Positions 27,295-32,000 of a stretch of DNA of 32,000 nucleotides are shown in pieces. Position 1 is the first letter of the stretch, and each line of letters begins with the position of its first letter. This DNA comes from Breznakia blatticola (GTDB lineage Bacteria; Bacillota_I; Bacilli_A; Erysipelotrichales; Erysipelotrichaceae), in assembly GCF_004365815.1 (NCBI RefSeq), contig NZ_SODD01000004.1:68617-100616 (forward strand). Direction: 5' to 3'. The notes under the pieces were generated by a model. The model worked only from the letters and a program-made list of their open reading frames with translations, was not told the DNA's origin and did no database searches. Made by a program: the position numbers and the translations under genes.

Positions 27295-27775
27295 AGATGT
27301 CTAGATACATATCATACCACACAGCATCACCATGTGTAGAAGAAGAAATCCCTTGATTGTTAAAGCCAAATTGCTCATAGAAAGATAGTAATTGCTTTTT
27401 GCAAGTAAGAATCATACCTTTACGATTTTGACTTTTACAAGTAGCAATAACATGATTCATGAGAGTAGATGCATAGTGCTTTCCTTGAAAGTCAGGATGT
27501 GTACTAACAGAAAAAATCGCAAAATATACACCATCTGCTTGATACATGTCGCTAGAATCATACATAGAATCACAAATGCATGGTGTATTTGTATACATTC
27601 CACTAATAAAACTTACAATTTGATTGTTTACTTCCAAAACAAAACAACAGTGCTCATAAGTAGTAAGACGCATCATAATTGCATGTAAATTTGCAGCCTC
27701 TGATTTTGGGAAACAAGAAGCTTCAATTGATGCTAATGTTTGTGCATCATCTAAAGTTGCATAACGTATATTCAT
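27293..27775 (-). CDS. GNAT-family N-acetyltransferase
   Basis: 160 aa from ATG 27775 (MNIRYATLDDAQTLASIE...). The acetyl-CoA-binding region is VSTHPDFQGKHYASTLMNHVI. The longer track start at 27832 would overlap the upstream gene. Confidence 0.85.
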   Translation of the reverse strand: MNIRYATLDDAQTLASIEASCFPKSEAANLHAIMMRLTTYEHCCFVLEVNNQIVSFISGMYTNTPCICDSMYDSSDMYQADGVYFAIFSVSTHPDFQGKHYASTLMNHVIATCKSQNRKGMILTCKKQLLSFYEQFGFNNQGISSSTHGDAVWYDMYLDI

Positions 27776-27782
27776 AATAATG

Positions 27783-28535
27783 TTATCTTTCTGACGTACC
27801 AGTATCTTTTTTCCATAAATGGATATTTTCATTACTCAGCATATTTAGTAAGTTTTTATCTGCTTGTGGATAGATTTTATAAATACTTTGAACAAGTTGC
27901 TTCATATCTTCACGTTTACTTACTCCATCGTTTGGACACGTACTTTCTACGATTGGAAGATCGTATTTTTTAACTGCCTGTTTGATATCTTTTTCGTAAG
28001 TATAAATAAGCGGTCGAATAAAGTGAATCTCTTTATCTTCATAATAGATATCTGGTTGAAAGGTTTCTAATCGTCCACCATAGATCGCATTTAAGAAAAA
28101 TGTCTCAATTGCATCATCTGCGTGATGGGCAAAGCATATTTTAGTTGCTTGTCTTTCTTTTGCGATATTGACAATTGCTCCACGCTTTAAAGTAGAACAT
28201 AAACTGCAATCATAAGATCCATCTTTGCGTTGATGATACGCAAGAATCTCATTCATATAGGTGTCTTCTTCATAGTATTCTACACCTAACTTCTTACAAT
28301 ATTCTCTGATTGGTGTACTATCCATATCAGGGAAATTCATTTTTAAATGAACTGCAAGTAGATTAAATTTTTTATGTTCAAACTTTTGGTATAGTGATAA
28401 TGCATATAACAATAACATACTGTCTTTACCACCACTAACGCCAACAATAATTAAATCATTCGATTCGATTAAATGAAAGTCTTCATCTGCTTTGCGTAAT
28501 TGTTTCAGTATTTTCTTCATGCATCTATTATACAT
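27783..28535 (-). CDS. PP-loop ATPase of the TtcA family (tRNA 2-thiocytidine synthetase-like)
   Basis: 250 aa. Carries the PP-loop VGVSGGKDS and the cysteine motifs CSLCSTLKRG and CPND typical of TtcA-type Fe-S thiolases. Confidence 0.82.
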   Translation of the reverse strand: MYNRCMKKILKQLRKADEDFHLIESNDLIIVGVSGGKDSMLLLYALSLYQKFEHKKFNLLAVHLKMNFPDMDSTPIREYCKKLGVEYYEEDTYMNEILAYHQRKDGSYDCSLCSTLKRGAIVNIAKERQATKICFAHHADDAIETFFLNAIYGGRLETFQPDIYYEDKEIHFIRPLIYTYEKDIKQAVKKYDLPIVESTCPNDGVSKREDMKQLVQSIYKIYPQADKNLLNMLSNENIHLWKKDTGTSER

Positions 28536-28655
28536 AATTCCACTTCTTTAGAATACCGTAATTCACAAATTGTAATAATCACCAATTTCGATAGTTTATT
28601 ATACATATTTGTTGTAGCGAATATGGTATAATATGAAAGGAAAAAAGGATGGCTT

Positions 28656-29486
28656 ATGGACGGAATACTCGTAATAAACAAACCAACAGACATGACAAGT
28701 CATGATGTTGTAAATATCGCAAGAAGAAAATTAAAGACAAAGAAAATCGGACACACGGGAATTTTAGATCCTAATGCAACTGGTGTTCTTTTATTGTTGG
28801 TAGGTAAAGCCACAAAAATCTTACCGTTTTTAGAAGATACAGATAAAGAGTATATTGCAACTCTTGCTTTAGGAAAAAAGACATTAAGTGATGATATTTG
28901 GGGTGAAGTGTTAGAAGAAAAGCCAATTACACCAATTGAAGATTTTTCTTCACTTTTACAAAAGTTTCAAGGAACCATCACACAAACTCCACCATTGGTT
29001 TCTAGTATAAAAGTGAATGGAAAGAAACTCTATGAATATGCTAGAGCAAACGAGCCTGTAGAAATACCAACACGCCAAGTGGATATTTATGAAATTGAAT
29101 GTTTAGATGCATCTGCACTAAAGTTTCGTGTGCACTGTGGTAGTGGAACCTATGTACGTTCACTATGTGTAGATATTGCAGCAGCAAGTAATAACTTAGG
29201 CTGTATGTCTTCACTTGTACGCACAAAAGTGGGTCGCTTTGATATAAATCAAGCAACAAATTTAGATGATCTACATCCTGAATCTATGAAATTATATCCA
29301 ATTAAAGAATTGCTTAATCATTTACAGATGGTGGAGTATGAACCAATTGAGGAAATCTATCATGGTAAGAAAATTAAACTAGATACGACTGAAAAACGTG
29401 TATGCATTACACATGATGGTAATTGTATAGCGATTTACAAACGATTAGATAACGGTTTATATGGTAGTGAAAGAGGACTTTGGTAA
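28656..29486 (+). CDS. truB: tRNA pseudouridine(55) synthase
   Basis: 276 aa. Carries GILVINKPTDMTSHDVV and GHTGILDPNATGVLLL (catalytic Asp). An extended -10 TG-g-TATAAT lies at 28624-28632. Confidence 0.95.
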   Translation: MDGILVINKPTDMTSHDVVNIARRKLKTKKIGHTGILDPNATGVLLLLVGKATKILPFLEDTDKEYIATLALGKKTLSDDIWGEVLEEKPITPIEDFSSLLQKFQGTITQTPPLVSSIKVNGKKLYEYARANEPVEIPTRQVDIYEIECLDASALKFRVHCGSGTYVRSLCVDIAAASNNLGCMSSLVRTKVGRFDINQATNLDDLHPESMKLYPIKELLNHLQMVEYEPIEEIYHGKKIKLDTTEKRVCITHDGNCIAIYKRLDNGLYGSERGLW

Positions 29487-30412
29487 TGAAAATATTTGAT
29501 ATATATGCAAACAAGCACTATCAAGTAATGAATAAGACAGTTGCTTGTATTGGTTTCTTTGATGGGGTACATGTAGGACATCAACACTTAATCAAACAAA
29601 CCGTTGAGCTAGCAAAGCAAAAAGGATTAACGCCTGCTTGCATTACGCTTTCAAGAGAACCACTGCAAGTTTTATATCCAGAACGTGATATTAAAACAAT
29701 TATGGATATCGAACAACGTTTACAAGCAATCGGTTCTTATGGAATTCAACAGTGTTATTTACTACATTTTGATCAAGCGATGGCAAATGTAAGTGCTGCT
29801 GATTTTATCGAATTACTAAAATCATTATGCATTGATACAATTGTTGCTGGTGAAGATTTTCGCTTTGGTAAGCAAAACAAAGGGGATGTCTTAATGCTTG
29901 AAAAACAGATGCCAACAAAAATCATTCCATTAGTTGAGTTATATGGACAAAAAATTTCTTCAACAACGATTATTGAAGCACTAGAAAAAGGTGAAGTGGA
30001 ATATGTTAGTTCATGTATGAATCGTTACTATGCAATTGATGGTTTTGTTATCCATGGGAATAAAGTTGGAAGTACAAAACTAGGATATCCAACAGCAAAT
30101 ATAGAGTACAACCCATTTATTGTATTACCTCGGGTTGGGGTATACATCGGACGTGTGATTTATGAAGGGAAAACGTATCGAGCAATGATTAATATTGGAC
30201 ATAATCCGACAATCAACCGACGTGATTTTTTATCGCTAGAAGCACATATACTTGATTTTGATCAAGATATCTATGGAAAACGACTTGTTGTTGAGTTTTC
30301 AAAGTATTTGCGATATGAAAAGAAGTTTAACAGTAAGGAGGAGTTGATTGAACAGTTAGATAACGATGTTCAATCCGTTAGAGATTATACCTATGAAATT
30401 AGAAATGTTTGA
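29486..30412 (+). CDS. ribF: Bifunctional riboflavin kinase / FAD synthetase
   Basis: 308 aa from ATG 29486, which forms a TAATG overlap with truB and follows RBS aagagga. Carries GFFDGVHVGHQHLI and GYPTANI. The riboflavin kinase C-terminus is NIGHNPT...EAHILDF. Confidence 0.93.
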   Translation: MKIFDIYANKHYQVMNKTVACIGFFDGVHVGHQHLIKQTVELAKQKGLTPACITLSREPLQVLYPERDIKTIMDIEQRLQAIGSYGIQQCYLLHFDQAMANVSAADFIELLKSLCIDTIVAGEDFRFGKQNKGDVLMLEKQMPTKIIPLVELYGQKISSTTIIEALEKGEVEYVSSCMNRYYAIDGFVIHGNKVGSTKLGYPTANIEYNPFIVLPRVGVYIGRVIYEGKTYRAMINIGHNPTINRRDFLSLEAHILDFDQDIYGKRLVVEFSKYLRYEKKFNSKEELIEQLDNDVQSVRDYTYEIRNV

Positions 30413-31754
30413 TATTATCGACAGAAGCATTAATTTATTTCAGGAAAACCAAGAAGAGTATTTGATTATCACTAGAGAAATCAAATATACACTTTTAAAT
30501 ATGTTGGATTCAGAAATTCATACTGGAATTACGACGCGAATTAAAACAGAGATGTCTTTACGTGAAAAGATTATTCGTAATCGTTACTATTTGACATTTG
30601 ATTCACCAAGAGCAATTATCGATAATATGCATGATTTAATTGGTTTGAAAATTGATGTGCGTTTTATTGAAGATGAATTTAAAGCATATAAACAATTGAA
30701 AGAATTTTTCAATGTGCAATTGGAAGATGGATACTATATTAATGATCATCATAAGAATTTAGCACTTGATATGGGAAGTTTTCAACCACAAACACAAAAG
30801 AATGGATATACGATTTATCGTATTGATGGATATTTCTTAAATGGAACCCATAAAGTACGCTTTGAACTGCAAATCAAAAGTCTAGTTAACTCGTTTTGGT
30901 CAGATATTGAACATAAACTTGTCTATAAAAACCATACGTTTCGTGTAGCGGATGGGATGATTAAAGATATGTTGAGTTCAATTAAAGCAAATCTAGTGAT
31001 TATCGATCGACAATTGCAAATTATTTATGATTCGTTTGATGGTGAAAATCAAATTACGAGCAGTTTTAATTCCAGATTTTCATTCGAAGAGTTAATAAGT
31101 AAAGCAATCAATGATTTGTGTTTACAAAAACTACAAACTTCGATTGGCTTTGGTGTGGATATACGAGGCACTAGTGCAATTCTTGGACATTATATATTTG
31201 AAAAAGACTTAATGGATTACAGCAATAAAGATCAAATATTATCGTTACTAGGAATTTTTAAACGAATTCAAGATGATGACATGGATTTTGAAAATGCGCT
31301 TGTTGTACATCCGCCAAAACGTGCGAAAGATGCATTTAGTAAAGCAATTTCAAACTTCTTTATTGAAGTGATGAATAAGGATTTTGAATGGTATGTATTC
31401 TTTAAAATACTATTTGCAGTAGAACCAGGAAATAATGATCAAGACTTTGCATTGTTTGTGAAAGTATTCCATGATTCTATTATTGAAAAAGATTGTTATG
31501 AGCAACGATTTAAAAGTTGTAGTCAAAGTGATGCAACTTTAGTTATTCGAGATTTAGAGTTAATGTTAGCACAAGCACTTATTCAAGTAGAAACGATTCA
31601 AATCGTACATAACGAAAGAATCAAGAAAATTCAAGAAACCTATAATAACTTCTTAAACAGTGTAGATAAACGAATTATTAATTACATTGATTTTGAAGTG
31701 AATAAAGAGAATTACCAAAAAGAATTATCTGACAGTGTTGCTCAACTATTTTAG
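30366..31754 (+). CDS. Divergent RelA/SpoT-type (small alarmone synthetase-like) nucleotidyltransferase with an uncharacterised ~260-aa C-terminal extension
   Basis: The longest ORF is 462 aa. Alternative in-frame starts are ATG 30393 and ATG 30405, the latter overlapping the ribF TGA as ATGTTTGA. No start has a good SD. SAS motif equivalents are RIKTEMSLREK (30537-30569), DLIGLK (30633-30650), GYTIYR (30804-30821), ELQIKS (30864-30881) and W..IEHKLVYK (to 30929). The rest has no motif I recognise. Confidence 0.75.
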   Translation: MFNPLEIIPMKLEMFDIIDRSINLFQENQEEYLIITREIKYTLLNMLDSEIHTGITTRIKTEMSLREKIIRNRYYLTFDSPRAIIDNMHDLIGLKIDVRFIEDEFKAYKQLKEFFNVQLEDGYYINDHHKNLALDMGSFQPQTQKNGYTIYRIDGYFLNGTHKVRFELQIKSLVNSFWSDIEHKLVYKNHTFRVADGMIKDMLSSIKANLVIIDRQLQIIYDSFDGENQITSSFNSRFSFEELISKAINDLCLQKLQTSIGFGVDIRGTSAILGHYIFEKDLMDYSNKDQILSLLGIFKRIQDDDMDFENALVVHPPKRAKDAFSKAISNFFIEVMNKDFEWYVFFKILFAVEPGNNDQDFALFVKVFHDSIIEKDCYEQRFKSCSQSDATLVIRDLELMLAQALIQVETIQIVHNERIKKIQETYNNFLNSVDKRIINYIDFEVNKENYQKELSDSVAQLF

Positions 31755-31784
31755 TCTTTGTTGTGCTATAATGAGTTAGTGAGG

Positions 31785-32000
31785 GTGCGCCAGTTCGGTG
31801 CATAATATATAATTGGGTGAAACTCCCAATCTGGTAAAGAATAACCAACAACCAGTACCTAGACTTGGAGCCGAAGCGGTGACGTTAGGTTTAAGCGTAG
31901 TCAAAGAAGTTTGAGAGCCGAAATGCGAAAGCGTGAAGTGATTGAGCCCCGTTAGTTATATAGAGTGGAAGTCGATTCAGTCCTCGCTGACGCAGACAAA
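31785..32000 (+). mobile_element. 5' end (domain I) of a group II intron, truncated by the window edge
   Basis: It begins with the canonical GTGCG (31785-31789). GTGCGCCAG resembles the start of Ll.LtrB. The hairpin ATTGGG-tgaaact-CCCAAT (31812-31830) and CTGG...CCAG (31831-31855) mirror the GGGUGAGAGUCCC / CUGUGAAGG...CAG elements of the bacterial introns I recall. GCCGAAATGCGAAAGCGTGAAG resembles ACCGAAAAGCGAAAGCTGA of Ll.LtrB. No long ORF lies in this stretch. Confidence 0.82.

Follow-up and report, generated by a model that had tools for sequence, protein, structure and literature searches.

A probable Erysipelotrichales orthologue of the cloRel/RelC synthetases encoded downstream of truB and ribF in Breznakia blatticola

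Introduction

Among the synthetases of the RelA/SpoT-homologue (RSH) superfamily, the Firmicutes subgroup cloRel was distinguished by Atkinson et al. in 2011 (PMC3153485), whose tables list Rel and cloRel for Finegoldia magna ATCC 29328 and Rel, RelP and cloRel for Clostridioides difficile 630. Poudel et al. in 2021 (10.1101/2021.08.02.454818) gave the name RelC to the C. difficile protein CDR20291_1607, which consists of a small alarmone synthetase (SAS) domain followed by a region of ~250 residues of no known type. The ATP motif of RelC is conserved and its GDP motif is divergent, the stacking tyrosine being absent (Q137 is found instead) and ten residues being inserted; its homologues are confined to the Firmicutes (10.1101/2021.08.02.454818). 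We found no functional study of RelC in the literature after that preprint. Here, we analyse a gene that is very probably of this kind in Breznakia blatticola. It lies on the plus strand of a stretch of 32,000 nucleotides (assembly GCF_004365815.1, contig NZ_SODD01000004.1, positions 68,617–100,616), which we refer to as the window and number from its first nucleotide.

An initial annotation, made from the sequence of the window, had described the gene as an orphan of novel architecture situated in accessory DNA and reminiscent of fused toxin–antitoxin proteins of the CapRel type. The explanation that we favour, with a probability of about 0.8, is that it is an inherited chromosomal orthologue of cloRel/RelC in which a pyrophosphokinase module is joined to a helical domain exclusive to the family.

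Results and Discussion

Relationship to the cloRel/RelC subfamily

The gene is contained within an open reading frame (ORF) at 30366–31754, on the plus strand. This ORF had been assumed to begin at its first ATG. Since all 29 of the 29 homologues aligned begin at the equivalent of its tenth residue (MKL/MRL..F), the true start is almost certainly the ATG at 30393, 27 nucleotides downstream, giving a gene of 30393–31754 and a protein of 453 residues. Residue numbers counted from the ATG at 30366 are called old below, and those counted from 30393 are called new (new = old − 9).

The protein aligns over its whole length with the C. difficile protein P0413 (455 residues, from a cluster of 422 sequences), residues 1–453 matching residues 1–454 with 37% identity and E = 1e-91. 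P0413 is identified as C. difficile RelC because it carries Q137, in the segment QPNKQ137KNGF, where Poudel et al. place it. The two proteins are collinear from end to end and are of almost the same length (453 and 455 residues). Both have an intact ATP motif, the acceptor segment QP.xQKNG[F/Y], a C-terminal portion of ~240–250 residues without a known domain and a restriction to the Firmicutes. They differ at the arginine of the DxxGxR motif, which is kept in the C. difficile protein (DLIGLR) and is lysine in the window protein, and in the surroundings of their genes: the C. difficile gene precedes mobA-like and molybdenum-cofactor genes, whereas the Erysipelotrichales gene is situated between truB–ribF and asp23. 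The older name follows by elimination from the F. magna and C. difficile entries of Atkinson et al., both organisms encoding a protein of the RelC-type architecture, to which cloRel must correspond.

The window protein thus combines full-length homology to RelC with a C-terminal region in which no domain is recognised and with relatives that, among the named matches, come only from Bacillota. Its Pfam score exceeds the gathering score and its catalytic and ATP-binding residues are found in 33 of the 33 sequences compared (diverse family members, with identities down to 26%, over which all conservation given below was counted), as in the SYNTH superfamily. On these comparisons we assign the gene, with very high probability, to the cloRel/RelC subfamily of RSH synthetases, as its Erysipelotrichales orthologue. 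The novelty claimed for its architecture does not survive, this having been described already for RelC of C. difficile (10.1101/2021.08.02.454818) and, as cloRel, before that (PMC3153485); the Erysipelotrichales protein adds a member to a known family.

The synthetase domain

That the N-terminal part of the protein is a divergent nucleotidyltransferase of the SAS type had been proposed from its motifs and is borne out by the Pfam family RelA_SpoT (PF04607), which matches old residues 57–190 with E = 6.4e-14 and 52.6 bits (cut-off 27), spanning positions 1–111 of the 113 in the model. With its flanking N-terminal helices and a long helix at 196–225, the RelP/RelQ-like module extends over old residues ~13–225 and is encoded by 30402–31040 (+). 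In a full-length AlphaFold2 (AF2) model built from a 30-sequence alignment, the predicted local distance difference test (pLDDT) is ~86–93 in the catalytic core and ~85–95 in the last 130 residues.

A Foldseek comparison with the PDB aligned ~215 columns with RelP and RelQ structures (6ex0, 6fgj, 5ded, 3l9d and 2be3; E ~2e-7), with target template modelling (TM) scores of 0.7–0.74. The toxSAS structures followed far behind (CapRel, 7ztb, E ~1e-3; FaRel2, 3e-3). A sequence profile of the family, run against the whole PDB, matched only RelP and RelQ chains, with E values from 2e-9 to 7e-8, and no toxSAS at E ≤ 1. The protein is nevertheless not a RelP or a RelQ, although it is like them in fold, because it scores 36.8 bits against the NCBIfam equivalog model of the GTP diphosphokinase YjbM, for which the cut-off is 320.

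RelQ (YjbM/SAS1) and RelP (YwaC/SAS2) of Bacillus, Staphylococcus and Streptococcus are accordingly the best match, in sequence and in fold, to residues ~13–225 with their flanking helices; they share its catalytic motifs and are likewise the products of chromosomal genes that do not belong to toxin–antitoxin (TA) systems. They are, however, single-domain proteins of ~210–230 residues, whereas the window protein has 453 residues and an additional domain of 237. It differs from them also in a rebuilt G-loop preceded by ~10 extra residues, in the lysine that replaces the arginine of EIQIRT, and in the arginine and histidine of GYRSxH, which are not preserved in place; the position of the tyrosine of that motif is ambiguous.

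A full-length Rel is encoded elsewhere in the window, at 9804–12014, as first annotated; the HD_4, RelA_SpoT, TGS and ACT domains were all found. In this long RSH protein, too, a PF04607 domain is joined to further domains, the role of which is regulatory in Rel and presumed to be so in the window protein. The N-terminal HD hydrolase and the C-terminal TGS, AH-RIS and ACT domains of Rel have no counterpart in the latter.

Donor and acceptor sites

The motif strings first reported for the protein, RIKTEMSLREK, DLIGLK, GYTIYR, ELQIKS and WSDIEHKLVYK, are all present in its translation. The sequence R-I-K-x3-S-L-R-E-K (old R58, K60, S64, E67 and K68), encoded by 30537–30569 (+), constitutes the ATP-phosphate motif; in RelP, RelQ and Rel, RxKxxxSxxxK binds the phosphates of ATP. 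The metal-binding motif D-L-I-G-L-K-I-D-V-R-F follows at 30633–30665 (+; old D90, G93, R99 and F100), its D, G and F being invariant, and the catalytic strand E-L-Q-I-K-S, succeeded by F-W-x2-I-E-H-x3-Y-K-N, is encoded by 30864–30932 (+), with E, Q, H, Y, K and N invariant. In the new numbering, R49, K51, S55, K59, D81, G84, E158, Q160, H174, Y178 and K179 are unchanged in 33 of 33 sequences. The retention of a metal-binding aspartate and a catalytic glutamate had been asserted from one sequence and holds for the family. D81 is the predicted metal-binding aspartate, E158 and Q160 would lie on the catalytic strand, and the invariant set as a whole is that expected of a functional donor site. 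Two canonical arginines are treated differently. That of DxxGxR is lysine in the window protein, arginine in 18 of the 33 sequences and variable in the others, and a nearby C-R-F is family-specific and nearly invariant; that of EIQIRT is replaced by lysine in 32 of the 33.

The acceptor-site segment, or G-loop, reads Q-P-Q-T-Q-K-N-G-Y-T-I-Y-R-I-D-G and is encoded by 30783–30830 (+; old residues 140–155). It is family-specific and conforms in the new numbering to Q131-P132-Q-x-Q135-[KR]-N137-G138-[F/Y]-x-I-Y142-[R/K]143-I-D145-G146. Q131, P132, N137 and D145 are invariant and residue 143 is always basic, while Q135, G138, Y142 and G146 are nearly invariant (out of 33: Q 33, P 33, second Q 32, N 33, G 31, F/Y 27, Y 30, R/K 33 and D 33). 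It is because the segment is almost invariant that it is judged to be selected and not degenerate.

Two alignments of this segment with the canonical K-P-N-G-Y-R-S-x-H are possible, and the alignments that HMMER gives differ between templates. In the gapless alignment, which HMMER returns for RelP and 3l9d and which is that of Poudel et al., the stacking tyrosine (RelQ Tyr116) stands opposite Q135 (old Q144). In the second, which is the equation of GYTIYR with GYRSxH made in the initial annotation, N-G-[F/Y] corresponds to the N-G-Y of GYRSxH. We favour the second, since N137 is invariant and G138 is present in 31 of 33 sequences, as in the canonical N-G, an aromatic residue comes next in 27 of 33, and a predicted β-strand starts directly afterwards. 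The original equation therefore stands as the alignment preferred on conservation and strand prediction, though not as the only one. Under it, the loop would contain a four-residue QPQx insertion and a shorter hairpin, the stacking residue would be kept and the phosphate-contacting histidine would have become arginine or lysine.

These features bear on whether the domain is a catalytically silent or nucleotide-sensing pseudoenzyme, in which ATP or an alarmone would be the ligand of the SAS fold and a partner would receive the signal by way of the helical domain. The failure of the arginine and histidine of GYRSxH to be kept in place, the loss of the stacking tyrosine as well under one of the alignments, and the fact that no activity has been reported for the family all fit such a role. 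The residues that bind ATP–Mg and those of catalysis (Asp, Glu and Gln) are, however, invariant over large evolutionary distances, and the near-invariance of the rebuilt G-loop is the pattern of an active site under selection, not of one in decay. We consider a pseudoenzyme improbable.

The C-terminal helical domain

The remainder of the protein, encoded by 31041–31751 (+), is an all-α domain of ~237 residues that is acidic (isoelectric point, pI, ~4.9) and occurs only in the RelC/cloRel family. The initial annotation had recognised nothing in these ~240–260 residues beyond a helical character, and this assessment agrees with ours. When old residues 226–462 were modelled alone, AF2 produced a bundle of ~10 helices with a pLDDT of 81.9 and a predicted TM score (pTM) of 0.79. 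A Foldseek search with this model, which had been suggested as a check, found no relative in the PDB at E ≤ 0.001, the best value being E = 0.29. The top fold matches are helical bundles of G-protein-coupled receptors (E > 0.29, TM ~0.2), and these represent generic helix packing. The same domain found no relative among the viral structure models of BFVD.

Sequence comparisons gave a similar picture. A Pfam scan of the whole protein at E ≤ 10 placed nothing on the C-terminal part, no match recurred when 21 isolated C-terminal domains were scanned, and the region was unmatched in NCBIfam and in the PDB sequence-profile search. Scattered single Pfam matches, Tad8 and HTH_48 among them, were not recurrent and were taken as noise. 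A degenerate HD or small alarmone hydrolase (SAH) domain, which would likewise be all-α, was also considered and set aside: the model has no PDB match at E ≤ 0.001, and the 50 matches listed include no RSH hydrolase or SAH.

A profile of the domain was searched against 1.84 billion representative proteins and retrieved 159 clusters. All of the near-full-length matches (~440–512 residues) have the domain at positions ~220–455, and the shorter ones are mostly fragments. We conclude that the domain is exclusive to the RelC/cloRel architecture, because a search of this extent finds it there only. Over the family the median pI is 5.7 for the synthetase domain and 4.8 for the C-terminal domain, whose net charge is about −14.

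Members from Clostridium and Sarcina are longer, at 505–520 residues (for example, P0429 of C. cochlearium and P0444 of C. tetani). In the two long members that were aligned, P0155 and P0168, a tail of ~55 residues beyond the helical domain accounts for the difference; this tail is missing from Erysipelotrichales and Peptostreptococcaceae members.

We put at even the chance that activity or assembly is governed by the C-terminal domain, whether by sensing, by autoinhibition or by oligomerisation. A second catalytic activity probably does not reside in it.

Distribution and genomic setting

The gene is not an orphan: a first protein search retrieved 779 relatives. The best 120 of these cover 94–100% of the query and are 454–470 residues in length, the named ones being from Erysipelotrichaceae (for example, Breznakia, Amedibacillus and Longicatena). 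When one genome was scanned for each species, at least 570 species genomes were found to encode a relative. The best 80 of these at least 570 loci were inspected, and the named matches are all from Bacillota: Erysipelotrichales, Peptostreptococcaceae, Clostridium, Tissierellia and Ectobacillus. More distant proteins of the same architecture occur in F. magna, Parvimonas, Ezakiella, Tissierella, Sarcina ventriculi, Clostridium hydrogeniformans, Paraclostridium, Romboutsia, C. tetani and C. difficile.

In the window, the gene is preceded in the same orientation by truB (28656–29486, +) and ribF (29480–30412, +), which were assigned from the Pfam families found on orthologous loci. The gene and ribF share 20 nucleotides, up to the ribF stop (30412), and the identical overlap is seen in the closest relative, an orthologue of 81% identity from Erysipelotrichaceae bacterium MTC7 (locus L001). 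No plus-strand terminator-like site was detected in a scan of 28400–32000, where promoter-like matches are no commoner than in shuffled sequence. Because the reading frames overlap and no terminator-like site was found, truB, ribF and the relC-type gene are likely to form one transcription unit, and the 20-nucleotide overlap suggests translational coupling within it.

Synteny was examined by tblastn over 87 fetched loci, of which 71 are not of the Clostridia type (Erysipelotrichales) and 16 are from Clostridia. The order ttcA-like gene (on the opposite strand), truB, ribF, relC-type gene, asp23 is found in ~68 of the 71, and in the MTC7, Amedibacillus and Breznakia loci it reads truB–ribF–gene–asp23–nusB–xseA–xseB–ispA–dxs. 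The gene had been thought to lie in acquired DNA because it occupies the place of rpsO in the B. subtilis order, which we take to be truB–ribC–rpsO; B. subtilis is the wrong reference for Erysipelotrichales. Inspection of homologous neighbourhoods, which the initial annotation itself recommended, reveals a conserved truB–ribF–gene–asp23 order that speaks against acquisition, and a common locus in related genomes was an outcome that the annotation had named in advance as contrary to its proposal. The gene is a vertically inherited chromosomal core gene across the Erysipelotrichales.

In the subclade of Solobacterium, Bulleidia and Anaerorhabdus, a gene for a protein of 440 residues intervenes between ribF and the relC-type gene (L043, 4670–5992; also L036–L086). 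From the motifs DLCAAPGGKS and VDAPCSGEG, recognised by eye, its product looks like an RNA methyltransferase of the RsmF/NOL1-NOP2-Sun type (RsmB/RsmF-type m5C), and the local association with RNA-modification genes is therefore stronger there. This raises the question of a housekeeping pyrophosphokinase of RNA or tRNA 3′ ends, the rebuilt site of which would take the CCA end or another RNA terminus and whose task would be tied to that of its neighbours. In the Erysipelotrichales these neighbours are truB (tRNA pseudouridine synthase), the ttcA-like gene of the PP-loop family and, in the one subclade, the RsmF-like methyltransferase gene; moreover, the SAS relatives FaRel2, CapRel and PhRel2 are reported to pyrophosphorylate tRNA. 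Both domains of the present protein are acidic, however, which would be unfavourable for RNA binding, its fold is nearest to those of the nucleotide-using RelP and RelQ, and the linkage to RNA-modification genes is missing in the Clostridia and Tissierellia copies. An RNA substrate of this kind thus appears distinctly improbable.

Comparison with toxSAS and defence proteins

CapRel of Salmonella phage SJ46 (7ztb) is likewise a single polypeptide in which an SAS-type domain is followed by a fused C-terminal one, and this superficial similarity underlay the proposal of a toxSAS- or CapRel-like protein, that is, a horizontally acquired anti-phage or fused TA protein with a toxSAS N-terminus restrained by a C-terminal antitoxin or sensor. 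The fold search does return CapRel, with E ~1e-3, and one might also suppose that toxicity accounts for the failure to express C. difficile RelC in E. coli. The match to CapRel is weak, however, with TM scores of 0.25–0.32, and RelP and RelQ match far better than any toxSAS, by sequence and by fold. The C-terminal model, for its part, has no significant PDB match, and CapRel is not among the 50 fold matches listed for it. CapRel is sporadic, is associated with prophages and defence, and acts on tRNA, whereas the window gene is a syntenic core gene that encodes an acidic protein.

The gene's surroundings and occurrence point the same way. PADLOC returned 0 matches. No conserved partner gene was found in the Erysipelotrichales loci or by clustering the neighbours of the 16 Clostridia loci. 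The product of asp23 was considered as an antitoxin and rejected: asp23 belongs to the housekeeping block asp23–nusB–xseA–xseB–ispA–dxs, has a −10-like element of its own and is missing beside the Clostridia copies. The 50,697 phage records contain nothing of full length; what is matched there, weakly, is the SAS core, with at most 27% identity and at most 37% coverage. The full-length plasmid matches listed reside on C. butyricum replicons of 0.7–0.9 Mb and on one 'plasmid' of 2.6 Mb, all of them megaplasmids or chromids, and small plasmids yielded no full-length copy.

Neither a SYNTH domain close to those of toxSAS, nor a cognate or fused antitoxin, nor a mobile or defence-island distribution was therefore found. 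With synteny across the order and vertical inheritance also against it, a CapRel-like protein is highly improbable, and the gene is not an acquired defence gene.

Three human faecal phage contigs (MT835514.1, MT835505.1 and MT836567.1) encode relatives of the SAS core only, with 26–28% identity to residues ~14–181. These genes are presumably of the toxSAS type and distinct from the RelC family.

Proposed function

We return to the favoured explanation, that of a cloRel/RelC orthologue with a pyrophosphokinase module. The motifs R-x-K-x3-S-x2-E-K, D-x2-G and E-x-Q are intact and are predicted to bind ATP–Mg, and the β,γ-pyrophosphate would be moved from ATP to the 3′-OH of a purine nucleotide. 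The acceptor pocket that receives this nucleotide would be a rebuilt one, with the invariant Q-P and near-invariant glutamines ahead of N-G-[F/Y], with arginine or lysine for the histidine of GYRSxH and with lysine for the arginine of EIQIRT; in such a pocket the acceptor, or its 5′-phosphate state, would therefore probably differ from the GDP or GTP used by RelP and RelQ. That the protein is a working pyrophosphokinase, dependent on ATP, and that the identity or phosphorylation state of its purine-nucleotide acceptor departs from the preference of RelP and RelQ, strikes us, from its motifs, as somewhat more probable than the reverse.

Several observations weigh against the favoured explanation. 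Enzymatic activity has been demonstrated for no member of the family, none has been reported for C. difficile RelC, and expression of that protein in E. coli was unsuccessful (10.1101/2021.08.02.454818). The alignment of the G-loop is ambiguous, and the version of HMMER and Poudel et al. replaces the base-stacking tyrosine by glutamine; this tyrosine is essential in all SAS and toxSAS proteins tested, and binding of a nucleotide acceptor might, under that alignment, be lost or radically changed. The full-length AF2 model has a pTM of 0.48 and low confidence over residues 189–330, so that the relation between the two domains is not established by it. Finally, gene context outside the Erysipelotrichales provides no functional hint.

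A more far-reaching proposal, that RelC uses an acceptor other than GDP or GTP (an adenosine nucleotide, yielding (p)ppApp, a monophosphate or another metabolite with a 3′-OH) and that its C-terminal domain is a new kind of sensor, seems unlikely. If it were true, C. difficile, C. tetani, the Erysipelotrichales and many other gut Firmicutes would possess an unrecognised second-messenger pathway, which in the Erysipelotrichales would be co-expressed with genes of tRNA modification and flavin cofactors.

The family is in any event widespread and strongly conserved; the at least 570 species genomes mentioned above include those of the pathogens C. difficile, C. tetani and P. sordellii as well as those of numerous gut Erysipelotrichaceae. 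The alarmone of C. difficile is pGpp only, and it is made by RSH and RelQ, which leaves the role of RelC unexplained. Where the C. difficile protein is intractable, the Erysipelotrichales orthologues and their operon context may be of help.

The asp23 leader and group II intron

The intergenic sequence downstream of the gene, at 31764–31784 (+), is what remains of the asp23 leader, as a direct reading and a comparison with MTC7 (L001, 3287–3325) indicate. It is made up of an extended −10-like element, TGcTATAAT (31764–31772), and a Shine–Dalgarno-like GTGAGG (31779–31784). In MTC7 the corresponding sequence is TGCTATAAT...GTGAGG, with the ATG of asp23 8 nucleotides further on, and we infer that the −10-like element acts as an asp23 promoter.

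The 5′ part of a group II intron, correctly noted in the initial annotation as following the gene, occupies 31785–32000 (+). It begins with GTGCG, lies outside the relC-type gene and extends past the end of the window. Rfam RF02005 matches 31820–32000 with 71 bits and E = 3.8e-18, the 3′ end being missing. By comparison with MTC7, the intron is inserted in the sense strand between the ribosome-binding site and the start codon of asp23; since it splits the one from the other, translation of asp23 would require splicing. Both asp23 itself and the remainder of the intron fall outside the window.

Other features of the window

The genes of the window are those of an ordinary core chromosome, among them thyA, folA, pdp, nadE, secDF, recJ, apt, rel, hisS and aspS. 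Pfam matches nothing, at E ≤ 1e-5, in an ORF of 295 residues immediately downstream of rel (12036–12923). Upstream of the hisS–aspS pair, at 15398–15588, Rfam RF00230 identifies a T-box leader with 114 bits. The ttcA-like PP-loop gene is overlapped at its 3′ end, by 50 nucleotides, by a GNAT acetyltransferase gene at 27293–27832 (−), for which tblastn found no counterpart across the 87 related loci.

Between aspS and the PP-loop gene is a pentose/arabinose cluster of ~8 kb (19477–27255). Pfam identifies in it a regulator of the GntR/LacI type, araA, an ORF of 241 residues, an aldose 1-epimerase and an FGGY kinase, and it ends with two ORFs (25526–27255) that were read, from their sequence and without a profile scan, as a split transketolase. 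In another Breznakia locus (L004), the PP-loop gene and truB come almost directly after aspS. It is this cluster, rather than the SAS gene, that looks like the lineage-specific insertion of the region.

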